Assembly: GCA_043799675.1 (NCBI GenBank)
Contig: JAZDNN010000024.1
Coordinates: forward strand, 7,418-71,417
Length of the DNA stretch: 64,000 bases
DNA from: Candidatus Aenigmatarchaeota archaeon
Lineage (GTDB): Archaea > Aenigmatarchaeota > Aenigmatarchaeia > Aenigmatarchaeales > JACQIB01
Reading direction: 5' to 3'
Positions 3,836 to 58,005 of the stretch are shown piece by piece. Positions within the stretch are counted from its first letter, which is position 1, and every line of letters begins with the position of its first letter. The translations under genes were made by a program, and so were the position numbers. The notes under the pieces are model-generated. The model made no database searches and was not told the origin of the DNA. It saw nothing but the letters and a program-made list of their open reading frames with translations.

Positions 3836-3903
3836 AATAGTTCAGCCCAAATACGACGCCCAATCCTTTTTAAGGTTGTTCGGAGGGGTGCCGACCTCGA
3901 AAA

Positions 3904-4137
3904 TCAAACGTGCGGGGTGGTGGTCTGATAACCCTGCTTTTTGAGCGTGTCAATCAGCTTACCGTATTCGGATGAGTTTGCAACCGAATCGTCAATCGGG
4001 TATATTTCCATCAGCTTGTGGGTCGGATGCGCCACGCAAACCAGACAGCCCTTTTTGTAAAAGCTGACGAACACGCTTTCCTCCGATTTGAATCCATGAG
4101 CCTCTCCGATATTCTGCAAATCCGTCGTATCTACCAT
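3904..4137 (-). CDS. hypothetical protein (77 aa)
   Basis: Stand-alone ORF with an ATG start. No family recognised. Confidence 0.35.
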   Translation of the reverse strand: MVDTTDLQNIGEAHGFKSEESVFVSFYKKGCLVCVAHPTHKLMEIYPIDDSVANSSEYGKLIDTLKKQGYQTTTPHV

Positions 4138-12466: not shown

Positions 12467-12688
12467 TTACTCTGCGGGGCTTGCGTAGATTATCGTGTCG
12501 CCCCTGACCAGCGTCGCGCCGAGCTTCACGGTCTTGTCATCCTTCCTGTCCTCGGCGTCGTCCAGCCAGATATTCAGGTGCAGATCAAATGCTTGAAGCA
12601 CACCGTTTATCTCCGAGCCGTTCTTCAGCTTCAGGATTACCCGTTTGCCCTTCGCGCGGTCCAAAACATCCAAAGGCCGCGAATTCAT
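12467..12688 (-). CDS. Sm-like archaeal protein (SmAP/LSm)
   Basis: 73 aa with Sm1/Sm2 motifs (VILKLKNGSEINGVLQAFDLHLNIWL...LVRGDTIIY). It forms the conserved Sm-rpl37e pair. Confidence 0.9.
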   Translation of the reverse strand: MNSRPLDVLDRAKGKRVILKLKNGSEINGVLQAFDLHLNIWLDDAEDRKDDKTVKLGATLVRGDTIIYASPAE

Positions 12689-12725
12689 ATCAATCGATTG
12701 CTATAGAACTGGGTTGGATATAAAG

Positions 12726-13046
12726 ATGCCGCCAAGGCAAAGCATTCTTAAGGTTTTGTTTCCTATGCCTATCATGGACAGATGCAGAGGCTGCGGCGAC
12801 ATGGGCCGCTTTTACAATGACCCTATCGGCGAATTGGAAAATCCGTCCCAGCCCCCGTCGTTTTATCTCAGGCTGGCGATGGAGCATTTCGACGATATGG
12901 AGCTGAGGCATATCAATTTCTTCATTGCCAAAATGGCCGTCAAAAAGCATTTTCCCAAAGACTATCCCAGCGTTCAACCTCTGAAGAGCGAACGTTTGTC
13001 AATGGAACAACTGGACCGATTGATCAAGAAATATCCTTCTTCCTAG
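12726..13046 (+). CDS. hypothetical protein (106 aa)
   Basis: First ATG after the overlap with the Sm gene. The start is uncertain and no family is recognised. Confidence 0.3.
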   Translation: MPPRQSILKVLFPMPIMDRCRGCGDMGRFYNDPIGELENPSQPPSFYLRLAMEHFDDMELRHINFFIAKMAVKKHFPKDYPSVQPLKSERLSMEQLDRLIKKYPSS

Positions 13047-13086
13047 ACTCCGATTAGTTTAAAAGGGCTAAAGGGGAACAGCACGC

Positions 13087-13470
13087 ATGCAGAAGCAGTT
13101 CAGGTCGCAGAGAAAGCCCACAGGCGGGCTTTACCACAAGCTGCGCAAGATGAAGAAGAGGGACCTTGGAAGGGACTTCGTGGCTGTGCACATGGCCCCG
13201 GCCAAGACCAAGAAGATCTGGGCTTACGGCGGAAACGTGAAGATGGCCATGCTGTCCGCCGATTATGCGAACGTTCTGGACCCGGCAACGCACACGGTCA
13301 GGAAAGCAAAGATAATCACGGTCAAGGAGAATCCGGCGAACCCGCACTTCGTCCGAATGAACGTCATCACCAAGGGAGCCGTGATTGACACCGAGGCCGG
13401 GATGGCAAGAGTCACTTCAAGGCCAGGGCAGCACGGGATCGTCAACGCCGTTTTAATTAAGAAGGCTTAA
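13087..13470 (+). CDS. rps8e: ribosomal protein S8e
   Basis: 127 aa, with RKPTGG...K.RKK...LGR and NPANPHFVRMNVITKGAVI typical of S8e. Confidence 0.9.
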   Translation: MQKQFRSQRKPTGGLYHKLRKMKKRDLGRDFVAVHMAPAKTKKIWAYGGNVKMAMLSADYANVLDPATHTVRKAKIITVKENPANPHFVRMNVITKGAVIDTEAGMARVTSRPGQHGIVNAVLIKKA

Positions 13471-45891: not shown

Positions 45892-46099
45892 GATCAAACC
45901 ACTCAATAGGGGGGTCCGTTTTGCAAAACCCCAGAACCGCCCTGACATATACTGTGGCCAACACGTATTTAAAGTTTACTCGGATTGTGTAGTGAACAGA
46001 ACAACCGTTCGGCAATGGTCGAAGCGATACGACGAGCTTTTATCCATTGTGACGGAACAACATAATCCGGATTGAAGCTGCCGAAAGAAGGAATGAAAA

Positions 46100-46963
46100 A
46101 TGCCAAAGGAAACGGATGAAGAACTGCTGGACGACATGACAGCGGCGGAAATAGACTTCATACGCTACAGCGAGATTGTGGACTGCCTGAAGGACGTGAA
46201 CGGACCGAGAGGTCCGCCGCTGAAGAACGCGAACGACATGTACACTTTCTTCATGCGATATGCGCGCGACCATACGGATGATCCTTACAACAAATTCTCA
46301 TGGTATCCCGAAAGGGACGGGCCGAACGGATACGTGCGCCGCCTGGATGATTCCATAGAGAAGGCGGAAAAGAGCGTGTTCGAAATAAGCGGTGACGGGG
46401 ACTTCGCAAAGAGCGATGAACGGATGGCGATGTACAAACGGAAAATAGCCGGCGAGGTCGTTTCGACGGTAAGGAAGGCGGAAGACGGCAGGGACGAAAC
46501 CGTACAGACGGAAAAGAAAGGGATACAGATGCGCTTCATGCTCGATGTCGAGGAGGGCTGGCTTAAATCGCTTGACAACTTCGAGCGGTTGGTGGAAGCC
46601 GGCGCGGAGATAAGAAATTTCATACCCGGCACGCCCTATGGAAAGTCCCATTTCGGCGTAATCGACGATAAAATGTTCTTCAGCATAACCAGGCAGCAGA
46701 CGCCGGAATCCACCATATCAAAGACCGTCGGGGAACCGCAGATGGAAAAAAGCATCAAGGAGAGCACCGGCGAGACCATACAGGAAATGAGATACGCCAT
46801 GTTCACAACCGAGCATCCTGTCGTCGTGAAGACGGCGAAAGGCGTGCTCAAACGCTGGTGGGCAAACGCCGAAGAGTACGAGCCTGCCGTGAAAAGACTC
46901 GGAGGTTTTCACGAGGAGCATTCGGTAATCAACGGCGCCAACGGCAACGGAAAGCGATATTAA
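46100..46963 (+). CDS. hypothetical protein (287 aa)
   Basis: Acidic N-terminus. The C-terminal part GKSHFGVIDDKMFFS vaguely resembles the PLD-like/TrmB C-terminal fold. Convergent with the TrmB-family gene. Confidence 0.45.
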   Translation: MPKETDEELLDDMTAAEIDFIRYSEIVDCLKDVNGPRGPPLKNANDMYTFFMRYARDHTDDPYNKFSWYPERDGPNGYVRRLDDSIEKAEKSVFEISGDGDFAKSDERMAMYKRKIAGEVVSTVRKAEDGRDETVQTEKKGIQMRFMLDVEEGWLKSLDNFERLVEAGAEIRNFIPGTPYGKSHFGVIDDKMFFSITRQQTPESTISKTVGEPQMEKSIKESTGETIQEMRYAMFTTEHPVVVKTAKGVLKRWWANAEEYEPAVKRLGGFHEEHSVINGANGNGKRY

Positions 46964-46973
46964 ATTCTGAAAA

Positions 46974-47801
46974 TCATTTCAGCTGCTTCCAGCAATTCTC
47001 GAAATTCTCGCGCAGGGCCGTAACAAGCGGCTGGCTATCGATGGTCATGAACTCGTAGCGGAACTCGGAATCGGTCCCGGGCTCGCCGGATGAGATTTCG
47101 GCCCCCTTCACCAACGGTATCTTGCTTATCACTATCGCCATGCAGCTGTCGGCGACATGCGCGCGGAGGTCGCCTGCATAGCCCGAGCGGACGGACAGGC
47201 CGAGCTGCTTCGCCTTCCGTATGTTCTCGGCTATCTTTTTGTTGCCTGTCGGGTCCTTCAAAATGACACGGACATGGATGCCCTTGCGGACCATGCTGCG
47301 AAGGACATCAGAGGACTCCCATATCCAGGACATGTCACCGGCGAAAATCGCGACGTCCTTCCTTGCGCACTTTTTTATCTCGTCAAGGAGCTTGCTGACG
47401 TTCGCCCTTTTCTGGGTCGACCAGATGTTCGAGCTGTCATCACCGACCACGAGCTCCGGCTCTATGTGCGAAAGGACCTCGGCGGCATCCTTCACGCGCG
47501 CCTTCATGGTCTCGAGCTGGGCGGTCAGATGCTTGTTTCTGGTCTCGGTGTAACGCTCAAGGGCGGTTGCAGCCGGGACGGCCTTGAACACCTTCGGCCT
47601 GGTCTTGCTGACCAGAACAAATCCTTTCCGCTGGAGCTCGGTTATGGTATCATAAACACGCGGAAGCGGGATGTGAGCCATCTCGCTTATCTTCTCGGCA
47701 GTAAGGGTGCCGTAACGCAAAAGAGACACGAACGCCTTCGCCTCGTACTCCGTGAGGCCTATCGACTTGAGCACCGCTTCCGGCTGTTCCATTTCCCCCA
47801 T
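46974..47801 (-). CDS. TrmB-family transcriptional regulator
   Basis: 275 aa. The N-terminal wHTH is LTEYEAKAFVSLLRYGTLTAEKISEMAHIPLPRVYDTITELQRKGFV, followed by a coiled coil and a TrmB C-terminal effector domain. Confidence 0.8.
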   Translation of the reverse strand: MGEMEQPEAVLKSIGLTEYEAKAFVSLLRYGTLTAEKISEMAHIPLPRVYDTITELQRKGFVLVSKTRPKVFKAVPAATALERYTETRNKHLTAQLETMKARVKDAAEVLSHIEPELVVGDDSSNIWSTQKRANVSKLLDEIKKCARKDVAIFAGDMSWIWESSDVLRSMVRKGIHVRVILKDPTGNKKIAENIRKAKQLGLSVRSGYAGDLRAHVADSCMAIVISKIPLVKGAEISSGEPGTDSEFRYEFMTIDSQPLVTALRENFENCWKQLK

Positions 47802-47921
47802 TAACCCACCATCAGTTTAATTCGCTGCGGCGTAATAGCTCCATAAAAGGTTATAAAGCTATTGGACTGGCGCAAGGCATTTCACGACCGGTCATTTAAG
47901 AGCCGGAAAACAAAGCTGCTC

Positions 47922-48353
47922 ATGCCGAAGTTCAGGTTCATTCCCGAGATAGCGATAGCTGATGTAGCCTTCGAAGCGGAAGGTAAGGACATCAATGAGC
48001 TGTTTGTGAACTGCGCCCTTGCAACCGAGGAATCCATGGTCAACACAAAGAAGGTGAAGCCGAAGGTCAGCAAGACCATAAAGCTGGAAGCGGATGCGCT
48101 GGACAGACTGATGATTGACTGGCTGAACGAGGTGATTTACTACAAGGACGCGGAGGGGCTGCTGTTTTGTGAATTCATCGTCAAGGTATTGCAAAAGGGA
48201 AAGAACTGGACGCTTGAAGCCACGGCAAAGGGCGAAAAGAGGGACCCGAAGAAGCACGAGCTCAGGGCGGATGTGAAGGCGGCGACTTGGCACCTTTTTG
48301 AACTGAAGCAGGAAAAGGGCAAGTGGAAAGCGAGGATTGTAGAGGATATCTGA
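47922..48353 (+). CDS. archease (RtcB activator)
   Basis: ATG at 47922 gives 143 aa. It has IADVAFEAEGKDINELF, KAATWHLFEL and the overall length typical of archease. It lies 1.9 kb upstream of rtcB. Confidence 0.75.
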   Translation: MPKFRFIPEIAIADVAFEAEGKDINELFVNCALATEESMVNTKKVKPKVSKTIKLEADALDRLMIDWLNEVIYYKDAEGLLFCEFIVKVLQKGKNWTLEATAKGEKRDPKKHELRADVKAATWHLFELKQEKGKWKARIVEDI

Positions 48354-48362
48354 TTACAACGC

Positions 48363-49196
48363 TTAGCTGCGTATTCCGCGGATTGTCCCTGTCGTGAACA
48401 CATTGTTGCCCTGGTCGACGTAATCTATCCGCACCGACACGCTGTACGGGTCCCCTGCGTTGCCGTTATTTCCCCGGCCGACATACCATGCGCTGTAATC
48501 GGGTTCCAGAGTTGGCGCGTTGATGTTGCTCAATAACGTTCCGTTCAGGGATACCAAGGCAATAGTTATAGCGTAATTGAAATGGGAATTCAGCAGGAGC
48601 ATCCTGAAAGTGCCGTTATGCGAGTAATCTGCATCGATCACGTCTATGCTGCCGAAATCGGATATCATCTTCGGCGTGCATGCCTGCGATTCCTGCGGTT
48701 TTGTATTATTCAGACCGCACGAAGCGGCATCAACACACGTACGCGTCTGCATCGCATTGGCGCCGCAAACCGACCACGCGCTGCACTGCCATACCGGGGC
48801 GCACGTGCATGCATCGCTTTCGGATGGCTTGCCTACGGTCGTCCCGCAGTGGTTCGAATCGCTGCACGTCCTTGTCTGGGTTCCCCCGACGCACAGGGAC
48901 CACGCACCGCAATACCAGTTCGGCGTACAATGGGTCACCTGCGCACAGCCGTTGGTTTCCTCCGGCCTGCCCGTGTTCGTACCGCAGGAGTTCTCATCAA
49001 CGCACGTCCTGGTCTGGACTCCGGAGACCGAGCATGCGCTCCATGCGCCGCACTGCCAGTCCGGCGTGCATACAGCTGGTGTCGGTTCGGGTTCAATCGG
49101 CCTTACAATAAACTGCATGACGAATACCAACGCAAGCGCGATGAGCATCAGGGACAATATCAGGATGACGGCGTTTTTGCTTCCGAATTTCAGCAC
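48363..49196 (-). CDS. membrane-anchored protein with three TSP1-like cysteine repeats (tandem paralog 1)
   Basis: 277 aa. An N-terminal TM anchor is followed by three copies of C-T-P-x-W-x-C-G-A-W-S-x-C-x3-G-x-Q-T-R-T-C-x-D-x-N-x-C-G-x5-P-x-E-x3-C and a beta-rich C-terminal domain. Confidence 0.6.
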   Translation of the reverse strand: MLKFGSKNAVILILSLMLIALALVFVMQFIVRPIEPEPTPAVCTPDWQCGAWSACSVSGVQTRTCVDENSCGTNTGRPEETNGCAQVTHCTPNWYCGAWSLCVGGTQTRTCSDSNHCGTTVGKPSESDACTCAPVWQCSAWSVCGANAMQTRTCVDAASCGLNNTKPQESQACTPKMISDFGSIDVIDADYSHNGTFRMLLLNSHFNYAITIALVSLNGTLLSNINAPTLEPDYSAWYVGRGNNGNAGDPYSVSVRIDYVDQGNNVFTTGTIRGIRS

Positions 49197-49260
49197 AACT
49201 GAAATGGTGATTATCGCTTAATAAAGAAAAATTTCGGCTTTGCTATCTGATTGCAGGCGC

Positions 49261-50127
49261 TTAGCTGCGCTCTCCGGAAACCGTTCCGGTAACTGAAAAC
49301 CCGTTACTGCCGCTATCCAAGTATGTCATCGTTACAGCGAGGGTATATGGATCTCCAACGTGGCCATTCACTCCCATGGTATTTGTGCCTGTCAGCCATA
49401 CCCTTTCCAGAGGGAATAAGTTCATGGGCACGTTCATGGATGGTATTTGTAAACCGTTGACGCTTACAGACGTAATGCTGATGGTATCGCCAACCCTGTC
49501 CTCCACCCACAATTTTAACGTACCATTTGCAGCGTAATCGACATCCAGCACACCTATGTTCGTGAAGCCGCTGATTGTCTTGGGAGTGCAGGTCTGTGAT
49601 TCCTGCGGTTTGCTTGTCGTTGTCCCGCAAGAATTCGTGTCAATGCATGTTCGCATCCGCGTTCCGCCGGCACCGCACGCGGACCATGCATCGCATTGCC
49701 AGTTAGGAGTACATGTACATGGTTGTGTTTCCAAAGGCCTGTCGCTAAACAGATTGCATCTGTTTGCATCCGTGCATACCCTGCTCTGATTTCCCGAATT
49801 ACTGCAATTGGTCCATGCACTGCACTGCCAGTCAGGCACGCAGGGTGGCGTGCAGAACTGGGTTTCAACAGGCTTGTTATAATTCACGCTGCAGGAATTC
49901 GCATCTATGCATGTCCTTGTCTGCGTTCCTGAAGCGGAGCATGCATTCCACGCCCCGCACTGCCAATCAGGCGTGCATACTGGGGGCATCAGAGGCCCAC
50001 TTGGCTTAATCAGGGATTGCACAATATACAACGATGCAAGCGCAACGATTATTACAGCCAGAACCAAGATAATGACGTTTTTCTTTTCGGATTTAGGCAC
50101 ACCTATTTTCTTTTCTGACTTAGGCAC
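49261..50127 (-). CDS. membrane-anchored protein with three TSP1-like cysteine repeats (tandem paralog 2)
   Basis: 288 aa with the same architecture as 48363..49196. The N-terminal PKSEKK is duplicated. Confidence 0.6.
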   Translation of the reverse strand: MPKSEKKIGVPKSEKKNVIILVLAVIIVALASLYIVQSLIKPSGPLMPPVCTPDWQCGAWNACSASGTQTRTCIDANSCSVNYNKPVETQFCTPPCVPDWQCSAWTNCSNSGNQSRVCTDANRCNLFSDRPLETQPCTCTPNWQCDAWSACGAGGTRMRTCIDTNSCGTTTSKPQESQTCTPKTISGFTNIGVLDVDYAANGTLKLWVEDRVGDTISITSVSVNGLQIPSMNVPMNLFPLERVWLTGTNTMGVNGHVGDPYTLAVTMTYLDSGSNGFSVTGTVSGERS

Positions 50128-50180
50128 ACCAAAAATGACTATTACCGCTTAATAAAGATGAATTTTGGCTTTGCTGCTTG

Positions 50181-50188
50181 ATTTATTA
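50181..50188 (+). promoter_or_regulatory. TATA-box-like element upstream of rtcB
   Basis: ATTTATTA lies 23-30 nt upstream of the rtcB ATG (50211), consistent with a leaderless or short-leader transcript. Confidence 0.3.
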
Positions 50189-50210
50189 GCGGCGCAAACG
50201 ATTAGCTGGC

Positions 50211-51795
50211 ATGGAGCAGGAACCTGAAAAGCAGACAGGCAGTCTGCCGAAGGAAATCAAGAAAATCAGCGAGGTCGTCTGGGAACTGCCCACCAGCTAC
50301 AAGAAAGGCATGCGCGTGCCGGCAAGAATATATGCGACCAAGAAGCTGCTCGATGCGATGGACGCGGGAGTGTTCGAGCAGGTCACCAACGTCGCGACCC
50401 TGCCGGGAATCGTCAAGCATGCGTTCTGTATGCCGGATGGGCACTGGGGTATGGGTCAAGTCGCGGCTTGATTCACTCAAATATGGGTTCCCAATCGGCG
50501 GCGTGGCTGCATTCGACCCGAAGGTCGGCGTGATCAGCCCGGGCGGCATCGGGTTCGACATCAACTGCGGCATGAGGTTCGTCACTACCAACCTTACTGT
50601 CAAGGACGTCAAACCCAAGCTGAAAGAACTGGTGGATATCCTGTTCAGGACGGTTCCCGCGGGCGTGGGCGGGGAAGGGTTTGTAAAATTAAGCCGCAGC
50701 CAATTCGACGAAATAATGGTCCAAGGGGCCAATTGGGTCATCGAGCACGGCTACGGTTGGAAAGAGGACACGGAAAGAATAGAGGAGTACGGCTGCATCA
50801 AAGGTGCTGATCCGTCAAAGGTCAGCGACAAGGCAAGGACCAGAGGCATCACGCAGATGGGGACGCTCGGCTCAGGGAACCATTACCTGGAAATCCAGAC
50901 TGCCGAGAAAATTTTCCTTCCCGAAGTCGCAGAGGCATTCGGCGTGAACGAACAGGGGCAGATAGGGGTGATGGTGCACTGCGGCTCGAGGGGGTTCGGC
51001 CACCAAATCGGAACGGATTATCTCAGGATATTCGACATGGCAATGAAGAAGTACAACATCACGGTGCCTGACAGGGAGCTTGCCTGTGCGCCTTTTGCGA
51101 GCCAGGAAGGACAGGATTATTATCACGCGATGGCCTGCGCGGCAAACATGGCTTTTGCCAACAGGCAGGTGATTTTGCACAGGATACGCGAGGCTTTTGC
51201 AAAGGTGTTCAGGAAATCCCCCGAAGACATGGAAATGCACCTGGTGTACGATGTCGCGCACAACGTGGCCAAGGTGGAGAAACACCTGGTCGACGGTCAT
51301 GAAAAGGAACTGGTGATGCACCGGAAGGGGAGCACGCGCTGCTTCGGTCCGGGTAGGCCGGAGATTCCTGAAGCTTACCGCAAGGTCGGCCAGCCGGTGA
51401 TTGTGGGCGGCAGCATGGAAACGGGCAGCTTTTTGTGCGTGGGCACGGACAAGGCTCTGACAGAAACATGGGGAAGCACCATGCACGGCGCGGGCAGAAC
51501 CATGAGCAGGACTTCAGCGAGGAACCAGGGCTCGGGCTTGGCGTTGCAGAAGAAGATGGCCAAGGAAGGGATACTGGTGGAAGCCACGAGCATGAGCGGG
51601 CTTGCAGAGGAAGCGGGCTTTGCCTACAAGGACCTGAACGAAGTGGTCGAGACCATGGAAATCGCGGGCGTGAGCAGGAAGGTCGTTCTGCTGAGGCCTT
51701 TGGGTAATATTAAAGGCACCGCCCGGGCCTCATACAGCCTTTTAGCTTTCCCCATACTTGTCATGGTCTTGGCCTTGATTTCGTCCCTTATCTGA
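50211..51795 (+). CDS. rtcB: RNA-splicing ligase RtcB, coding sequence interrupted by a 31-nt BHB intron (exon 1 50211..50450, exon 2 50482..51795)
   Basis: - Exon 1 (80 aa) ends ...LPGIVKHAFCMPDGHWG.
- Exon 2, in another frame, starts YGFPIGGVAAFD...GGIGFDINCGMR, and HCGSRGFGHQ and further motifs follow.
- Joining at 50450/50482 recreates the universal MPD.H.GYGF.IGG motif.
- Unspliced, the first frame stops at 50469-50471 after 86 aa.
- The C-terminus carries a hydrophobic extension of about 25 aa after the usual ...IKG end. Confidence 0.85.
50451..50481 (+). other. predicted bulge-helix-bulge (BHB) intron within the rtcB mRNA
   Basis: - Central helix: UGGG (50445-48) / CUCA (50476-79).
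- Bulges: GUA (50449-51) and AAU (50480-82), each 3 nt.
- Inner helix: 9 bp, UGGGUCAAG/CUUGAUUCA, with loop UCGCGG.
- Cleavage after the 2nd bulge nucleotide on each side removes exactly the 31 nt needed to restore the frame. Confidence 0.75.
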
Positions 51796-52859
51796 ACGAT
51801 AAGCGGTTCGACCTGTTTCCACCTCGTGATGTTCTTGCCGATTATTTCGAGAATCAATTCCTTTTTGGCCGTTTTCTCGGGATGCCTCAACGGCAGCAAT
51901 TCGAGCATCCGACGGACATCGGCCTTCCTGAAGATTTCTAAGGCGAAATAATCCTTGCTGTATCTTATACTGACCCCATGAGTGTCTCTGCCGTCCCCGC
52001 GCCTGAAAATCCTGTATAGAATTGGATTAAAGCCCTGTTCCCTTAGTTGCCGTTTTATCCTACCAAGCAAGGTTTTATTTTCGGTGCCTATCCGCATACA
52101 ACACTGCAAATTTTCCCTGATTTTCTTGACCAGAAGCGACCCTTCCGCATCGAAGTAGCCGGCCAGGAACGACAGGAAAACATTCCGTTCGGATTCGACC
52201 AACTCTGAAATCAATCGTTTCCTGTTTTCCAGCAAGAGGAAGTCGAAGCTGTTGTCGAGGTCTGCGGATGTCGTCCACATGTAATTTCCAAAAGTTCTGT
52301 TCTTCGCAGGATATGTCCTTACCTTCGCATATCCTTTGAACAGGCTCTCGAAGACATCCAGGAATCCTTCATGAGTCGTGTTGGTTATGGCCCGAATGGT
52401 ATGCTTCGATCTTCTGAAGGCTGTCACATCACCCTCCACGAAACCAACCATGTAAGCCTTTTCTTCATCCTTTCCATCAAAACTTTGCCGTTCATGTTTC
52501 CTGTTTGTCAGCAGGATAGCCTCATCGTTTCCACGCACCCGAAAGCCGTTTTCTTCCAGCACCTTATGCAACGTGCCTTTGGAAGAACCAAATTTCTTGG
52601 CCAGCTTTTTCAACGATATTTTCTCCGTGTCATAAAGTCTCAGAATTTCCGTCACAGGCAGGTGTTTCCTGTGAGACAACGAATGTGCCTGACTGAGATT
52701 CCTTATCGGTATGTCAAGTTTGATGAACCGTTTTCTTACGGCCGACCACGATATATCGTCTCCGAGCTTAACACTCAATATCGCCGCCACTTCTTTGAAC
52801 GTCTTACCGGACGAATAGAGACTCTCGGCTTCCTTCAGGAGTTCGCTGTTCAGCTTCAT
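51624..52859 (-). CDS. LAGLIDADG endonuclease-like protein with N-terminal HTH domains
   Basis: 411 aa. There are two N-terminal HTH-like segments (GKTFKEVAAIL and ISLKKLAKKFGSSKGTLHKVL), then LAGLIDADG motifs (YMVGFVEGDVT and FLSFLAGYFDAEGS). It lies directly downstream of the DGR RT. Its last 172 nt overlap the 3' end of rtcB on the opposite strand. Confidence 0.65.
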   Translation of the reverse strand: MKLNSELLKEAESLYSSGKTFKEVAAILSVKLGDDISWSAVRKRFIKLDIPIRNLSQAHSLSHRKHLPVTEILRLYDTEKISLKKLAKKFGSSKGTLHKVLEENGFRVRGNDEAILLTNRKHERQSFDGKDEEKAYMVGFVEGDVTAFRRSKHTIRAITNTTHEGFLDVFESLFKGYAKVRTYPAKNRTFGNYMWTTSADLDNSFDFLLLENRKRLISELVESERNVFLSFLAGYFDAEGSLLVKKIRENLQCCMRIGTENKTLLGRIKRQLREQGFNPILYRIFRRGDGRDTHGVSIRYSKDYFALEIFRKADVRRMLELLPLRHPEKTAKKELILEIIGKNITRWKQVEPLIVQIRDEIKAKTMTSMGKAKRLYEARAVPLILPKGLSRTTFLLTPAISMVSTTSFRSL

Positions 52860-52914
52860 GGTCGTCTATTATATCCCGTTAGGCACTATAAATTGATATA
52901 TATTCTCGAGCACA

Positions 52915-53991
52915 CTAATCATGCAGAATACATCCAAAAATATTATTATACCTTCCAGCGAGCGCATTTCTCAACCTGAACGTGTCGCCCTGCGCCGCAT
53001 AGGCCATCCAGCCCTCAAGGCTTTTCGCAGCCTGTTCTGCCGAAATCTCACCGGATTCGTACTGCAGTCTGAGTGCCGTCATCCTTTTTTCGAGCTTCAG
53101 CAGGTTCCTCCTTTTTGGAATCCTGTAGTGGTAGAACACCCTGAAGCCGAGCAACGATATCCCCTTATGCAAAGGGTAGACCTGCGATTTTTCCTCATGC
53201 AACTCTAGCTTTAACCGTTGTTTGAGGAACCCGTTTATCCCGCTCCTGAACTGCATCAGCGCGGCCTCAGACCTGTCCAGAATCACGAAGTCATCTACAT
53301 ACCGGAGATAGAACCTTGCCTTAAGCACGTGCTTCACGAAATGGTCCAGCTCATTCAGGTAGACGTTCGCGAAGAACTGGCTCGTCTGATTGCCTATCGG
53401 CATCCCCTTCGGCAGGGCAGGGTCGTTGTTCGACAGGATTTTCCGTACCAGCCAGAGCACGCTTTCGTCCCTTATTTTTCTCCGTATGATGCCAATCAGG
53501 ACATCGTGGTCGACGCTCGGGAAATAGTGCCTTATGTCGGCCTTCAGTGCATAGCCGACCACCATGTTGTTGTCCTTCGCGCCGTGCACCAAACGGCCGT
53601 TCCCGGAAACCTTTCGCTTGAAGCAATCAAACCTGTCCAATGCTGCCAGGCCGCCCTTTCCCTTCCTGTTGGCGTAGCTGTCGTGGATGAACGTTTTGTC
53701 GAAAATCGGTTCGAGCACGTTGCATAACGCATGATGGACAACACGGTCCCTGAAATGCGAGGCATGAATTACCCGTGTCTTGGGGTCGCGGATGATGAAC
53801 CGTTTCAACGGGCGCGGCGAATACGTACGATTTTCAAGCTCAGTTTTCAAATCTGCCAATTCGCCATCAAGATTAGCTTCGAATCTTTTGACATACCATT
53901 TCTTCGACTTGCCCTTCCTCGCCTTTCTGAATGCCAGCAAAAGGTTCTCTGGCGAGCAGACCTTTCCGTAAAGGTTGTCAAATGTTTTCAA
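52915..53991 (-). CDS. DGR-type reverse transcriptase
   Basis: 358 aa with an apparent TTG start. RT motifs 1-7 include RVIHASHFRDRVVHHAL, the DGR-diagnostic PIGNQTSQFFANVYLNELD (I/LGxxxSQ) and the catalytic YLRYVDDFVIL. It has no maturase or endonuclease domains, and it sits 30 nt downstream of the TR. Confidence 0.85.
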   Translation of the reverse strand: MKTFDNLYGKVCSPENLLLAFRKARKGKSKKWYVKRFEANLDGELADLKTELENRTYSPRPLKRFIIRDPKTRVIHASHFRDRVVHHALCNVLEPIFDKTFIHDSYANRKGKGGLAALDRFDCFKRKVSGNGRLVHGAKDNNMVVGYALKADIRHYFPSVDHDVLIGIIRRKIRDESVLWLVRKILSNNDPALPKGMPIGNQTSQFFANVYLNELDHFVKHVLKARFYLRYVDDFVILDRSEAALMQFRSGINGFLKQRLKLELHEEKSQVYPLHKGISLLGFRVFYHYRIPKRRNLLKLEKRMTALRLQYESGEISAEQAAKSLEGWMAYAAQGDTFRLRNALAGRYNNIFGCILHD

Positions 53992-54040
53992 AAATATCCC
54001 CTATCGGCGGCCCGTGCTATTGGCGCAGACCCCGTTGTCA

Positions 54041-54073
54041 TTCAGGCTTCCCGCCAAAAGGCAATGAGGAAGT
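54041..54073 (-). other. TR intron 3 (33 nt, predicted BHB)
   Basis: Sense-strand layout: CAGG | AAA | CUUCC-UCAUU-GCC-UUUU-GGC-G-GGAAG | CCUG | AAU. That is a perfect 4-bp central helix CAGG/CCUG, 3-nt bulges and a 5-bp inner helix. Confidence 0.75.
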
Positions 54074-54098
54074 TTCCTGTTCGAGGGCCTGTTCGCAT

Positions 54099-54129
54099 TT
54101 ATGCCGGCGGAACGTTTCCTTCCAACCGT
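54099..54129 (-). other. TR intron 2 (31 nt, predicted BHB)
   Basis: Sense-strand layout: AUGC | GAA | CGGU...GCCG | GCAU | AAA. That is a perfect 4-bp central helix AUGC/GCAU, 3-nt bulges, and an inner helix CGGU/GCCG enclosing a GGAA-ACG-UUCC hairpin. Confidence 0.7.
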
Positions 54130-54145
54130 TCGCATTGAAGCACCC

Positions 54146-54162
54146 TTGACGGCCCGAAGGCT
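54146..54162 (-). other. TR intron 1 (17 nt, predicted BHB)
   Basis: Sense-strand layout: GACG | AGA | GCC-UUCG-GGC | CGUC | AAG. That is a 4-bp central helix GACG/CGUC, 3-nt bulges, and an inner GCC/GGC helix with a UUCG loop. Confidence 0.7.
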
Positions 54163-54436
54163 CTCGTCCGTGTTCCAATCCGACCTGACGGAAGGGTTTC
54201 GGTAGCCTCTCCACCGACATGACACCGCGGCTTCAATCTTCGGGAACCTACCAACTGAAACCGCTGAATTTAATGGCACAAGCATTCGGACGGCATGAAA
54301 TGCCATCGCACCATCTTGCGCTCTATGGAAAGGCGTATAGCGCGGGCCTTTGCCGGGAGAATGAAATACCCGCCCCCCGATTGGGAAGGAAAGAACTCTG
54401 TCATGCAAAAATTGAGGGACGAAACGATTTATGCGC

Positions 54437-55183
54437 CTATTTTGAGGTCTTAACCGCTTTTTTTGCGGCGCAGACCCCGAGGTCATGCCTGAGCGAGGGC
54501 CCGCCCGCATCCGCATCGAAGCACCCCCCGTCGGAGTGCCAAGTCGACCTGACGGAAGCCACTTCAACCGGGATTAAGGCTTCTGTTTCGATTTCTACTA
54601 TATCCAGTTTGTTGTCTTTCATCCTGTAAGAAGCCGCTTTCTGTTTGGCCAGCTTTTGGATGACCTCAAGATTATGATTCCAGTAATCGTCCATCGTTGC
54701 CTTGTATTCCTTGTCGGAATTCATCAGTTCAGCCGACTCCTGTGCCTTGAAGTGTCTTACTCCAAAGTCCAGCTTGAACTCCTCGGGTATTCTCTGATAG
54801 ACCAGTTCCTGGATTATCCTGTCCGCATTGGCGATGAACCCTTTGCGTTTATAGTCCCTGAACTTTCCTGCGTCCCCTTTGGCCATCAGGAGCGCATAGC
54901 CTTTCTTTTCAAGGTCCTTTTCCAGCCTCTTTCCGTCAATTATGGCCAATATTTCATCGACCTCTCCCAACCTTTCTTTTACAGAAAAATCATCATCAAA
55001 TATTACAGAGCCATTGTAAGCGGCCAGCTTCGAATCATACGCGCCTGCTGCACGCAGATAATCGAGAACACAGCCTTCAACAGTTACAGGCACGGCTTTT
55101 CCCGTGAACCTGAATTCCCCGTCGATAATCCTCACTTCAGGCTCGGGCATCACGACCGTTGTTATTTTGCTCATGATAATCAT
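54437..55183 (-). CDS. DGR target protein B (VR near C-terminus)
   Basis: 248 aa. The C-terminal ...SVRSTWHSDGGCFDADAGGPSLRHDLGVCAAKK is encoded by VR-B. The N-terminal 200 aa are unrelated to targets C and D. No signal peptide is seen. Confidence 0.7.
   Translation of the reverse strand: MIIMSKITTVVMPEPEVRIIDGEFRFTGKAVPVTVEGCVLDYLRAAGAYDSKLAAYNGSVIFDDDFSVKERLGEVDEILAIIDGKRLEKDLEKKGYALLMAKGDAGKFRDYKRKGFIANADRIIQELVYQRIPEEFKLDFGVRHFKAQESAELMNSDKEYKATMDDYWNHNLEVIQKLAKQKAASYRMKDNKLDIVEIETEALIPVEVASVRSTWHSDGGCFDADAGGPSLRHDLGVCAAKKAVKTSK
54467..54558 (-). repeat. DGR variable repeat VR-B (92 nt)
   Basis: Colinear with the spliced TR. There are 16 differences, 14 at TR adenines and 2 at G positions. 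Confidence 0.75.
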
Positions 55184-55186
55184 TCT

Positions 55187-55912
55187 TCAGAAGTGCTTCT
55201 TCACGACTTCGAGGTCTTTCATCAAAGCGTCATATTTCTTTGACTTTTCCAGAAGCTCCCGGTATTCGCTCTCCGCGACCTCGCACATCTTCGGAAGCTC
55301 GGCCTTCTCGTCCGTTTTAAGGAGGGCGCAGACCCCGTCGTCAGCCCAGTGCGAGGGCCTGCCCGCAGTCGCATTGAAGCACCCCTCGCCCGTGGTCCAA
55401 GCCGACCTGACGGAAGCTTCACCGTTTTCAAACGAGATGCTTCCCCTCCAGACCTTCTTTTTCGGTTTCTTGAACAGCCCGGCATTCACGAGTGTATCAA
55501 AGACGTCCGATTTGCTTATCCCGGCCCTTGTTCTTTTGCCGTCATATTTGAGTTCACCGTTCACTTCCTTCACGACGGGGTCGGCTATTATCTCGCCCTT
55601 CTCAAGGGCGACTTCCCTGTTGTGCAACCAATAATCAATATTCATTTTCTTGAACGACTTGTCCTCGTGCACCAAATCGTAAGAAACCTGCAACGGCAGG
55701 AGCGTGTAGCGCTCGCCGACCTTCTTTGATACTTCCTGACCGAGAAGCGTCATCTGCCTGTGGTCGAGGTTCGCCACGAGGCCATTGCCTTTGTAGTCGT
55801 TGTGCCCTTCGGCAGGACTTCCCTTCCATTTCGGGAAATACACCGTTTCCTTGCCCGTGGGCGGCACTATCTTTCCCGCTATCTCATGGACGATTTCGGC
55901 CTGTGTTACCAT
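55187..55912 (-). CDS. DGR target protein C
   Basis: 241 aa and a paralog of target D (shared ...GKETVYFPKWKGSP.EG.ND...VGERY..LP.Q.SYDLVH.D.SFKKM). VR-C encodes SVRSAWTTGEGCFNATAGRPSHWADDGVCA, followed by a helical tail of about 40 aa. Confidence 0.7.
   Translation of the reverse strand: MVTQAEIVHEIAGKIVPPTGKETVYFPKWKGSPAEGHNDYKGNGLVANLDHRQMTLLGQEVSKKVGERYTLLPLQVSYDLVHEDKSFKKMNIDYWLHNREVALEKGEIIADPVVKEVNGELKYDGKRTRAGISKSDVFDTLVNAGLFKKPKKKVWRGSISFENGEASVRSAWTTGEGCFNATAGRPSHWADDGVCALLKTDEKAELPKMCEVAESEYRELLEKSKKYDALMKDLEVVKKHF
55326..55417 (-). repeat. DGR variable repeat VR-C (92 nt)
   Basis: Colinear with the spliced TR. There are 11 differences, all at TR adenines (11 of 22 A positions changed, 0 of 70 non-A positions). 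Confidence 0.8.
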
Positions 55913-55972
55913 GAGGACAATACCACCGCAAAGGATTTAAGCGGAAGACTGAACGTAAACGGCTTGAACTAC

Positions 55973-56695
55973 TCAATCGCCGCATTCGTCCAAAGCCGCT
56001 TTCCTAAAATCCAACGATTTAGGAGGGTCCTTCAGAAACTGTTGATATTCGCTCTCCGCAATCTTGCGCACCTTCGGCTTCTCAACGGCCTTGCCCGTTT
56101 TCACGAAGGCGACAACCCCGCGGTCAGGCCCGGAGGAGGGCCAAGACGCACCCACAGCGAAGCACCCAAAACGGTTTCCCGACTTGACGGAAGAAATGCC
56201 GTCATTCTCGTAAATGATGCCCCAATCACAGACGTTGTGATTGAGCTGCTTGAACAGTTTTGCGCTGGCAAGCGTCTTTATCACGGACTCTGCGTCAATG
56301 TTCGCCTTTACGCTCCTGCAACCATCATTGAGCCTGAGCTCGCCGTCGACTTCGCTGACAATCGGGACGGAAATAACATCCCCGTTTCTCCGTATGACTT
56401 CCCTGTTGATTATCTTATAATCGGCCATCATTTTCTTGAAACTTCTGTCATTATGCACCAAATCATAACTCGTCTGAAACGGAAGTTCGGCATAACGCTC
56501 GCCCACTTTCTCGGATATCATCTGACCCAAGAACACGGACTGCCACTTATCGAGAGTCGCAACAAAACCCTTACCGTAACGATCGTTGCGTCCTTCTATC
56601 GGACTTCCCTTCCACTTCGGAAAATACGCCGTTTCCTTGCCGGTAGGCATCCTAATCTTGTCCAAAATTTCATAGACGATTTCAGCTTCACCCAT
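55973..56695 (-). CDS. DGR target protein D (degenerate VR)
   Basis: 240 aa and a paralog of target C. The VR-like segment encodes SVKSGNRFGCFAVGASWPSSGPDRGVVA. Confidence 0.65.
   Translation of the reverse strand: MGEAEIVYEILDKIRMPTGKETAYFPKWKGSPIEGRNDRYGKGFVATLDKWQSVFLGQMISEKVGERYAELPFQTSYDLVHNDRSFKKMMADYKIINREVIRRNGDVISVPIVSEVDGELRLNDGCRSVKANIDAESVIKTLASAKLFKQLNHNVCDWGIIYENDGISSVKSGNRFGCFAVGASWPSSGPDRGVVAFVKTGKAVEKPKVRKIAESEYQQFLKDPPKSLDFRKAALDECGD
56108..56193 (-). repeat. DGR variable repeat VR-D (86 nt, diverged)
   Basis: Alignable to the spliced TR, but with a 6-nt deletion, several non-adenine differences and a diverged 3' boundary (GGGGTTGTCGCC against GGGGTCTGCGCC). It is probably no longer a homing target. 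Confidence 0.55.
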
Positions 56696-56717
56696 TATAA
56701 CTAACTAGTGGTGATAG

Positions 56718-56724
56718 TATTTAA
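56718..56724 (-). promoter_or_regulatory. TATA-box-like element for the DGR target operon
   Basis: TTAAATA on the minus strand lies about 23-29 nt upstream of the ATG of target D (56695), suggesting a leaderless transcript. Confidence 0.3.
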
Positions 56725-56742
56725 GGTTTCTTTTTGGGCTGG

Positions 56743-56750
56743 TTTATAAA
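56743..56750 (+). promoter_or_regulatory. TATA-box-like element upstream of rps26e
   Basis: TTTATAAA ends 22 nt upstream of the rps26e ATG (56772). It shares the divergent intergenic region with the DGR operon. Confidence 0.3.
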
Positions 56751-56771
56751 CCTCGGAGCAGAAAGTGGCAC

Positions 56772-57056
56772 ATGCCAATCTCGGGAGCACCGTACACGCG
56801 GCAATGGGAGCACCACAAGGGGCGGGGACACGAATCCTCGGTCACATGCGGCTACTGCGGAAGGCTTGTGCCTCGGTACAAGACGTTCACCAAGTTCAGG
56901 GGCTTCAGAATCACCGATCCCACGATACTTCAGGCGGTGGACAGGCAGTTCATCCACACCTTCAGCCAGAAGATATACGTCTGCCCGAGCTGCGCGCGGT
57001 CCCACAAGATAGTGCAGAGAGGCAAAACGAAGCAGAAAAGCCACATGTTCAGATAG
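56772..57056 (+). CDS. rps26e: ribosomal protein S26e
   Basis: 94 aa. It has HKGRGHESSVTCGYCGRLVPRYK...F and YVCPSCARSHKIV, matching the S26e pattern (GRGHV..V.C..CGR.VPKDKA... and YC.SCAIH.K.V). Confidence 0.75.
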   Translation: MPISGAPYTRQWEHHKGRGHESSVTCGYCGRLVPRYKTFTKFRGFRITDPTILQAVDRQFIHTFSQKIYVCPSCARSHKIVQRGKTKQKSHMFR

Positions 57057-57096
57057 GATTAAAAAGAACGGTTTCTATATACTGGAGCAGATAGAT

Positions 57097-57423
57097 ATGA
57101 AAGTCATCGAAATACAACCGACGACCATGGCGGAGGCCAAGGAGATAGTGCTCGCGAAGGAGAAGGACAAGGAGCTGGGCTACGAGCAGAAGCTCGCGGC
57201 GGAGCACCTGAAGAAGTTCACCAAGCTGAAGCGCGAGGATGCCAAGAAGTTCATGAACGAGCTGACTTCCGTGCTGAAGGCCTCGCCCGAGACGCTGGTG
57301 ACCATAGCGAACGTCCTCCCGCAAACCACCGATGAGGTACGGCTGATTTTTGCCAGAGAGAAGTTCAGCGTGAAGGAAGACGAGATTTCCAAGATACTGG
57401 AGATAGTCAAGAAGTTTGTTTGA
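57097..57423 (+). CDS. rpoF: DNA-directed RNA polymerase subunit F (Rpo4)
   Basis: 108 aa. It is helical and Rpb4-like (EAKEIVLAKEKDKELGYEQKLAAEHLKKF...), in the conserved rpoF-DUF655-ksgA neighbourhood. Confidence 0.75.
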   Translation: MKVIEIQPTTMAEAKEIVLAKEKDKELGYEQKLAAEHLKKFTKLKREDAKKFMNELTSVLKASPETLVTIANVLPQTTDEVRLIFAREKFSVKEDEISKILEIVKKFV

Positions 57424-57432
57424 GGGTTTTCT

Positions 57433-58005
57433 GTGGAAAGAGACGAATGGGCCGTAGTTCTAGACTTCCTACCTAAGGGAAAAGCATCCGGCAAGCCTGA
57501 GCCATTGGCACAAGTGCTCGGTACCTTCCGATTCGGCCTGCTGGAAGTGGTGGTAAGGGAAGGGGTCATACTCAAGCCGGGCGAGAGGCTGTACATCGGG
57601 GAACAGGAAAGGAAGGAAGTGGACCACATCAAGCGGAGGATAGCCTCCAACGAGCTGACCTCCTTTGCCCGCAATGACCTGCCGTTCGCGGTGGAAAAGA
57701 TAGTCAGGGCGGAAGAGGCGAGGTTCGTGGACTTCTTCAACAAGGCCACTTCCATCTCCGTCAGGACCCATCAGCTCGAGCTGCTTCCGGGAGTCGGAAA
57801 GAAGCACATGTGGGACATAATCAACGAGAGGAAGAAGGGGCCGTTCAAGAGCTGGGACGACATCAAGAGCAGGATAAGCCTGCTGCCGGATCCTGCCAAG
57901 CTCATAGTCCAGAGGATTCTCAAGGAGATAGACAACGACGACGAACGGTTCAGGATATTCGTGGTCGGGCCGCCGAGGCCCGAGGACAGATGGGGCAGAC
58001 GCTAG
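57433..58005 (+). CDS. DUF655-family RNA-binding protein (OB fold + helix-hairpin-helix)
   Basis: 190 aa. It has EWAVVLDFLPKG..., then LELLPGVGKKHMWDIINERKKGPF.S..DI. This is the conserved archaeal gene between rpoF and ksgA. Confidence 0.7.
   Translation: MERDEWAVVLDFLPKGKASGKPEPLAQVLGTFRFGLLEVVVREGVILKPGERLYIGEQERKEVDHIKRRIASNELTSFARNDLPFAVEKIVRAEEARFVDFFNKATSISVRTHQLELLPGVGKKHMWDIINERKKGPFKSWDDIKSRISLLPDPAKLIVQRILKEIDNDDERFRIFVVGPPRPEDRWGRR

Follow-up and report, generated by a model that had tools for sequence, protein, structure and literature searches.

An HTH-LAGLIDADG gene convergent with rtcB

The window analyzed here is a 64,000-nt stretch of contig JAZDNN010000024.1 from a Candidatus Aenigmatarchaeota archaeon, and the subject of this study is an open reading frame (ORF) on its minus strand (51624..52859, 411 codons plus stop), a helix-turn-helix (HTH)-LAGLIDADG endonuclease gene that converges with rtcB, the tRNA ligase gene. 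Its ATG at 52859 is the 56th base past the stop of an upstream reverse transcriptase (RT) gene on the same strand (TAG, 52917-52915), with an intergenic gap of 55 nt, and its other end has 172 nt (51624..51795) in common with the plus-strand rtcB ORF, which ends at 51795. Both distances agree with an earlier reading made from the letters alone (the sequence-only reading), which put the start 56 nt past the RT stop on the same strand and the end 172 nt inside convergent rtcB. That reading also described a 411-aa double-motif LAGLIDADG protein with N-terminal HTH domains, a description borne out by the AlphaFold2 (AF2) model, in which two LAGLIDADG domains and two HTH-like modules are predicted.

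The closest homologues, 379–390 aa long and 54–59% identical, match down to E = 1e-138, and an identical protein from a Candidatus Aenigmatarchaeota metagenome-assembled genome is named “LAGLIDADG family homing endonuclease” in NCBI. Because of these matches and this named entry, the ORF is, on sequence grounds, a real gene, and a chance ORF is excluded. Pfam LAGLIDADG_3 covers residues 229–321 (E = 3.3e-9) and exceeds its curated cut-off; HTH_58, HTH_7, and HTH_psq match at residues 70–110, all under their cut-offs. Rfam and terminator scans gave no match in the region of the endonuclease gene. The gene has the following features:

51624..52859, minus strand: full endonuclease ORF (ORF list, Pfam, homologues)
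51723..52859, minus strand: family-conserved part of 379 codons, ending ...AKRLYEAR; the sister genes of L001, L003, and L007 have exactly this length (alignment with sister genes)
52887..52892, minus strand: TTTATA box about 30 nt 5′ of the ATG, a putative promoter element (upstream alignment)
52719..52847, minus strand: first three-helix HTH-like module, residues 5–47 (AF2 model)
52551..52655, minus strand: second HTH-like module, residues 69–103 (AF2 model; Pfam HTH matches under cut-off)
52197..52469, minus strand: LAGLIDADG domain 1, residues 131–221, motif MVGFVEGD, D144 at 52428-52430
51897..52187, minus strand: LAGLIDADG domain 2, residues 225–321, motif LAGYFDAEG, E239 at 52143-52145

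Predicted fold and catalytic residues

The AF2 model, built on 15 homologues, has a mean predicted local distance difference test score (pLDDT) of 85.9. Residues 131–321, which span both LAGLIDADG domains, lie above 90; they are followed by a long C-terminal helix (347–380) and a disordered end (381–411, pLDDT 24–38). A Foldseek search with the model returned I-DmoI, I-AniI, I-Tsp061I, and bI3 maturase, all with probability 1.00, and I-HjeMI was also among the matches, while the sequence profile search matched I-AniI, I-OnuI, and I-DmoI. The model thus predicts a monomeric protein with a two-domain LAGLIDADG fold. Its two LAGLIDADG helices each end in an acidic residue (Asp or Glu), as in LAGLIDADG homing endonucleases, where this residue binds metal. 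These catalytic residues, D144 (GFVEGD) and E239 (LAGYFDAEG), are invariant in the alignment of 15/15 homologues, and G143-D144 is invariant in all 82 aligned metagenome relatives. They match D20 and E117 of I-DmoI, which end the two LAGLIDADG helices of that enzyme (PMC3384342). By sequence position, K153 and K245/K246 are candidates for the basic residues K43/K130 in the β1–β2 loops of I-DmoI.

The gene sits at the rtcB 3′ end in relatives

The gene is likewise convergent with rtcB, running into its 3′ end, at L001 (NCBI GCA_053535795.1), L003–L006, L007, L008, L027, and L110, the loci of its close relatives. Where it could be read, the overlap with rtcB is 76 nt in these relatives, except for L007 with 109 nt; at L027 and L110 the tails are arranged as in the others. 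A metagenome scan with the family alignment yielded at least 270 relatives, from which 80 loci were kept, and linkage to rtcB was seen at 12 of them. The clade of the window, clade A, includes L026 and L027; L029 and L045 form clade B, and clade C comprises L028, L030, L031, L033, L034, L042, and L043. Sequence identity between the proteins of clades B and C, and of either to the window protein, is only about 30%; all genes of these two clades are convergent with rtcB and abut its end or run 4–97 nt into it. The rtcB 3′ site is constant in more than 20 loci from three clades. As to the first HTH-like module, the match extends into the first 12 residues of the query at 12 metagenome loci, of which 10 are rtcB-linked, the two exceptions being L068 and L088.

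Other branches of the family lie tail-to-tail with housekeeping genes, at gaps of 30–70 nt or with a 4-nt overlap. Three loci (L046, L075, L087) are docked on nuoD at 30–50 nt, and at L049 the endonuclease gene is found about 430 nt from the nuoD 3′ end; this sister subfamily looks like a second site-specific lineage. Further docking genes are Lyase_1 (L039), a thiolase gene (L038), and DUF6775 (L036). Such subfamily-specific docking at the ends of conserved genes fits the behavior of free-standing homing endonucleases and is not what would be expected of a dedicated rtcB cofactor. The searches thus define a large free-standing HTH-LAGLIDADG family, found mostly on unassigned metagenome contigs and apparently archaeal; among 2.9 million viral contigs, a single weak relative was detected.

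The window gene is on the strand opposite rtcB and lies outside any intein or self-splicing intron, i.e., it is free-standing. No intron family was found by Rfam over 46000-58000, where an RT-16 RNA was the sole match. A large bulge-helix-bulge (BHB) intron enclosing the endonuclease gene at the rtcB 3′ end, past which the real rtcB stop would lie, was also considered and rejected, as a scan of five loci gave weak and inconsistent motifs.

Each gene has lost its stop codon and ends inside the other

Genome contigs yielded 17 rtcB genes that are endonuclease-free (Nanoarchaeia, Woesearchaeota, Methanosarcinales, and Kryptonia included), and every one of them ends in ...(I/V)KG followed directly by the stop. 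The same ...KG-stop end is present in L106 and L108, which are endonuclease-free as well and rank among the closest relatives found for rtcB; this brings the total to 19. In clade A this stop is gone, and rtcB reads on to a stop at a conserved position, through 25 codons that lie antisense to the final 25 of the endonuclease gene. The features of the junction are listed below:

50482..51717, plus strand: rtcB exon 2 (the predicted splicing is described below), up to the conserved C-terminus ...RPLGNIKG, where the Pfam RtcB model ends
51718..51795, plus strand: 25-codon hydrophobic rtcB tail (TARASYSLLAFPILVMVLALISSLI) plus TGA, antisense to the endonuclease 3′ end
51720..51722, minus strand: lost endonuclease stop codon, GCG in the window versus TAA in L001, L003, and L008
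51624..51719, minus strand: rest of the read-through extension, 31 codons plus TAG, pLDDT 24–38, antisense to the rtcB 3′ end

The endonuclease genes of L001, L003, and L008 end in ...KRLYEAR/SE-TAA, directly adjoining the Gly codon of rtcB, and for L027 the TAA stop was inferred from its rtcB tail. The window carries GCG at this position and its endonuclease gene continues for 32 further codons, antisense to rtcB, to a TAG that stems from AYKD, a conserved motif of rtcB. In L007, GCA stands at the ancestral stop position and 11 further codons are read. Since sister lineages have TAA where the window has GCG, the 32-codon extension is a lineage-specific read-through that followed stop loss. 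The sequence-only reading had suggested that the last 30 or so codons, antisense to conserved rtcB sequence, may be a read-through created by the insertion; the first part stands, while the origin lies in the loss of the gene’s own TAA. The endonuclease genes of clade B extend over the same approximately 31 antisense codons and purifying selection continues to act on them, so this C-terminal read-through is evidently tolerated.

The rtcB tail has a 19-residue Kyte-Doolittle mean of 2.0–2.6 in all six lineages. The third codon positions of the tail and of the endonuclease gene coincide in this antisense phase, and conservation of the tail is for this reason inseparable from that of the endonuclease C-terminal helix. 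By its composition, the 25-residue tail looks like a transmembrane or tail-anchor segment.

Selection and turnover

Counted to the ancestral stop position, every endonuclease gene of clade A has exactly 379 codons. Within clades, the ratio of nonsynonymous to synonymous substitution rates (dN/dS) was 0.10–0.15 (L001 vs. L008, 0.143 at a dS of 1.1; clade B, L029 and L045, 0.154); these are all within-clade comparisons, as synonymous sites between the window and its clade-A relatives are saturated. The endonuclease gene is under purifying selection, which, together with the fixed codon count, speaks for continued function.

In a neighbor-joining tree, the rtcB genes that carry an endonuclease gene are spread over at least three separate rtcB clades and intermingle with genes that have none. 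The window rtcB is 68–70% identical to endonuclease-free rtcBs and 63% identical to those of L001 and L003; despite the latter value, the L001 and L003 endonuclease genes are the closest relatives of the window gene. When genome contigs were searched with rtcB, matches reached 71% identity at most, and none came from a genome closely related to that of the window. At L109 (1128-1620), rtcB bears a hydrophobic tail (NAAIKWVLIALPALFVLVIARLL), and neither tblastn nor the family hidden Markov model detected an endonuclease gene in the 421 nt past it. Judged from this tail, L109 suggests loss of the endonuclease gene with a footprint left behind. The spread over the rtcB tree, the discordant identities, and L109 all speak for mobility or turnover.

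Comparison with known systems

The window protein resembles I-DmoI and I-Tsp061I in its two-domain LAGLIDADG fold (target-normalized template modeling scores of 0.6–0.68 in Foldseek) and in its archaeal host, although sequence identity to them is only 15–19%. These two enzymes are encoded inside rRNA introns on the strand of the host gene, whereas the window gene is free-standing, on the opposite strand, and has what appears to be its own promoter. The window protein has in addition about 125 extra N-terminal residues, which hold the two HTH-like modules, and a long C-terminal helix.

In location, the gene is like the free-standing genes of phages (T4 seg/mob, S-PM2 F-CphI), being intergenic, adjacent to a conserved gene, and apparently served by its own promoter. 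Free-standing phage endonucleases spread by “intronless homing,” in which the neighboring conserved gene is cut in genomes that lack them. The phage enzymes belong to GIY-YIG, HNH, and Endo VII-like families and are phage-borne, whereas the window gene is chromosomal and of the LAGLIDADG family; they also do not overlap or replace the stop of the host gene, which the window gene does. Fungal mitochondria also have free-standing endonuclease genes at the 3′ ends of other genes (e.g., Allomyces atp6); these are inserted at the very end of a conserved gene and replace its C-terminal coding sequence. They are usually on the same strand as the host gene, fused to it or in frame downstream, whereas the window gene is convergent and the rtcB tail is the antisense of the endonuclease gene. 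F-CphI of cyanophage S-PM2 is described in PMC6083498. The window gene probably belongs with the free-standing LAGLIDADG homing endonucleases already known; it is set apart by the added HTH modules, the apparent specialization on the rtcB stop, and the mutual entanglement of the two genes.

A probable homing endonuclease gene specialized on the rtcB stop-codon region

We consider it likely that the gene is a free-standing, site-specific homing endonuclease gene specialized on the stop-codon region of rtcB, a reading that draws on the observed architecture, catalytic residues, constancy of site, loss of both stop codons, purifying selection, and lack of a link to the upstream RT (see below). 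The enzyme would recognize the conserved end of an endonuclease-free rtcB (...GGN AAY RTN AAR GGN stop) together with adjacent DNA and would cut there. Repair from an occupied allele would then copy the gene of about 1.2 kb in, tail-to-tail with rtcB, and the carrier genome would be protected, as the insertion splits the recognition site. As the sequences show, the rtcB stop has been replaced by the insertion in the clade of the window, so that rtcB now ends 25 codons inside the antisense endonuclease gene; in the window genome the endonuclease gene has lost its own TAA too, gaining 32 more codons antisense to rtcB. Expression would be served by the putative TATA-box promoter. The conserved rtcB terminus is a candidate for a ready-made target site of the rtcB-specific lineage, which could be tapped in nature for new meganuclease scaffolds that bear additional HTH modules. 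With each stop codon lost into the partner gene, the pair illustrates how a selfish gene may become hard to delete.

Several points weigh against this reading. No occupied/empty pair of close genomes (>80% rtcB identity) was found, so that the presence/absence polymorphism is documented across deep divergence only. The endonuclease clades broadly mirror the rtcB clades, which also fits long vertical co-inheritance, and such strong purifying selection at this depth is unusual for a purely selfish endonuclease and would fit a host function as well. The loci were gathered with the endonuclease as query, and the sample is thereby biased toward occupied sites. The rtcB tree is a neighbor-joining tree in which the branch of the window is without bootstrap support. 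Invariance of the second LAGLIDADG motif among the metagenome relatives is partly built in, DAEG having been part of the search pattern. Cleavage of DNA, the precise recognition site, and a possibly continuing mobility are what we infer from these data.

A rather doubtful idea is that rtcB and the endonuclease gene, each ending inside the other, are by now locked into an obligatory sense/antisense coupling, in which the HTH-LAGLIDADG protein, bound to its own junction, may also tune expression of the ligase. If true, the endonuclease gene could not be deleted without harm to the only tRNA ligase; such addiction-like entrenchment would account for intact genes under purifying selection across clades that are about 30% identical. 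The rtcB mRNAs would also need BHB splicing and ligation by RtcB, and the locus would be a self-referential control point of RNA ligation in small-genome archaea.

A domesticated partner or regulator of rtcB is improbable in our judgement; the sequence-only reading had raised a domesticated DNA-binding factor as an alternative. The protein would be a WhiA-like DNA-binding factor that tunes the ligase by binding the junction or through convergent transcription. WhiA/DUF199 offers a precedent, as it combines a bipartite LAGLIDADG fold with HTH (PMC3384342), and a host function would suit the low dN/dS (0.10–0.15), the exact 379-codon length throughout clade A, the mutual embedding of the two 3′ ends, and an association with the rtcB 3′ end that persists across three clades of only about 30% identity. 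In WhiA, however, the catalytic residues are lost and the HTH is C-terminal (PMC3384342), whereas the window protein has its HTH modules at the N-terminus and two acidic residues that are both invariant, and Pfam gave no WhiA-type match. Sister branches are also docked on unrelated genes (nuoD and a thiolase gene among others), all 19 rtcB loci sampled without the endonuclease query (DPANN ones included) have no endonuclease gene, and L109 seems to have lost it. Domestication is disfavored because the catalytic residues are kept and because sister branches dock on unrelated genes.

Slightly less probable still is that the window copy is a decaying relic, fixed in the genome and kept only for termination of rtcB, with its stop lost and a 32-residue junk tail acquired. 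The change of TAA to GCG, the independent-looking GCA in L007, and the predicted disorder of the extension are in line with decay, of which L109 looks like a further stage; termination of rtcB inside the endonuclease gene would constrain its clean deletion. Yet the other 379 codons of the ORF are intact and retain every family-invariant residue, and clade B, with the same approximately 31 antisense codons, is under purifying selection (dN/dS 0.154). The specialized homing endonuclease accommodates these observations better in our view.

The upstream reverse transcriptase appears to be an unrelated neighbor

Upstream of the endonuclease gene lies the following feature:

52915..53991, minus strand: RT of the diversity-generating retroelement (DGR) type, upstream neighbor (ORF list, Pfam)

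The RT matches Pfam RVT_1 and contains IGNQTSQ, which we take to fit the DGR-type signature [ILV]GxxxSQ. An Rfam RT-16 RNA at 54197-54373 (minus strand; 57 bits, above the gathering score), located between the RT and the first upstream gene, belongs to the DGR. Three paralogous genes upstream of the RT have a common 3′ repeat, two copies of which (54467-54559 and 55325-55417) are 82% identical, an arrangement that fits a multi-target DGR. Alignments of template and variable repeats (MAFFT and local, seeking adenine-specific mismatches) were gapped.

The sequence-only reading had proposed that DGR and endonuclease gene form one cassette, inserted as a mobile unit next to rtcB. A mobile insertion next to rtcB is retained above as part of our interpretation, while the single cassette is contradicted by the relatives, which keep the gene at the rtcB 3′ end without any RT or DGR, an outcome named in advance as telling against it. 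No RT was found upstream in any relative with readable upstream sequence, nor by tblastn and Pfam among the neighbors of the metagenome loci. Instead, the upstream neighbors are a PDDEXK gene with small ORFs in L001, an unknown 331-aa gene in L003, and an IS200-type transposase gene in L008. Recurrent co-occurrence with a DGR RT, by which DGR accessory genes are recognized, is thus not seen.

When the upstream DNA was aligned with that of the relatives, similarity started at the TTTATA box (52892-52887) and none was present beyond it; the block TTTATAgTgCC...ATG is the outermost stretch in common. The common unit would therefore be a putative promoter plus ORF, of about 1.2 kb. As homology reaches no farther than the TATA box, which is 22 nt away from the RT stop, the DGR lies outside the endonuclease unit, and from these alignments it appears to be an unrelated neighbor whose location is coincidental. 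A composite cassette inserted between rtcB and rps26e, in which the endonuclease mobilizes the DGR, is consistent with the shared strand, the 55-nt spacing, and a GC content of 0.46–0.48 across 51750-53250 vs. 0.54–0.59 in rtcB, but is very improbable given the RT-free loci of the relatives, the end of homology short of the RT stop, and a conserved putative promoter block that belongs to the endonuclease gene itself. However tempting, a link of DGRs to homing endonucleases is thereby set aside as wrong.

Candidate BHB introns in rtcB

In the window, rtcB is split into two frames, 50211..50471 and 50332..51795. Its 5′ part has the following features:

50211..50450, plus strand: rtcB exon 1 (...MPDGHWG)
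50451..50481, plus strand: candidate BHB intron of 31 nt in the rtcB coding sequence

Exact removal of 50451-50481 restores the conserved HWG|YGFPIGG. The ends of the insert coincide with a BHB motif made of a 4-bp helix (UGGG/CUCA), 3-nt bulges (GU|A and AA|U), and a 10-bp inner stem. In BHB motifs, cleavage takes place after the second bulge base. We therefore regard the 31-nt insert as a candidate BHB intron whose splicing is predicted. Similar inserts are present in relatives. L001 has two on the minus strand, at 12445-12413 (33 nt) and 12340-12309 (32 nt), with BHB junctions that restore HWGYGFPVGG and GGIGYDINCG, a Tyr codon being rebuilt across the junction in both. In L029, a 25-nt insert (6253-6229, minus strand) has a BHB junction that restores GGIGFDINCG. 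The relatives thus display two insertion sites in rtcB, HWG^YG and GIG(Y/F)D^INCG. Helix and bulges recur in all four inserts (one in the window, two in L001, and one in L029), with inner stems of 4–11 bp, and unconstrained minimum free energy folds show the BHB motif in three of the four cases. The outer helix is weak (0–2 bp), and the motifs are for this reason assigned to the relaxed BHB type. No inserts were found in the rtcB of L003 or in any endonuclease-free rtcB from genome contigs. A putative insert of about 24 nt was noted in L045, near 6230-6200 on the minus strand.

Two other explanations of the 31-nt insert were tried and rejected. Translational bypassing, as in T4 gene 60, would give a product one residue longer or two residues shorter than the conserved motif, and for an insertion with target-site duplication, the TATGGGT repeat is spaced 32 nt apart, not 31.

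In the literature searched, archaeal BHB introns in mRNA are reported only for cbf5 and for the 5′ untranslated region of HVO_1309 (PMC7714728, PMC2738675), and no mention of one in rtcB was found. The candidate rtcB introns would extend these two cases and may outweigh the endonuclease finding in importance; should the inserts be spliced, the tRNA ligase would have to ligate the mRNA that encodes it. The window rtcB is probably annotated as a pseudogene, since its protein is absent from the protein search matches, and may be mis-annotated as such.

Two further observations concern rtcB in other genomes. On the low-coverage groundwater contig of L108, the rtcB gene has four in-frame stops (TAG/TAA) within 17 otherwise collinear codons (3900-3960); this could reflect a pseudogene, an assembly error, or something else. 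In L001, a second, single-motif LAGLIDADG_3 ORF (190 aa; 12664-13236, minus strand) lies between the archease gene and the start of rtcB and overlaps both, so that the 5′ side of rtcB has been colonized as well in that genome.

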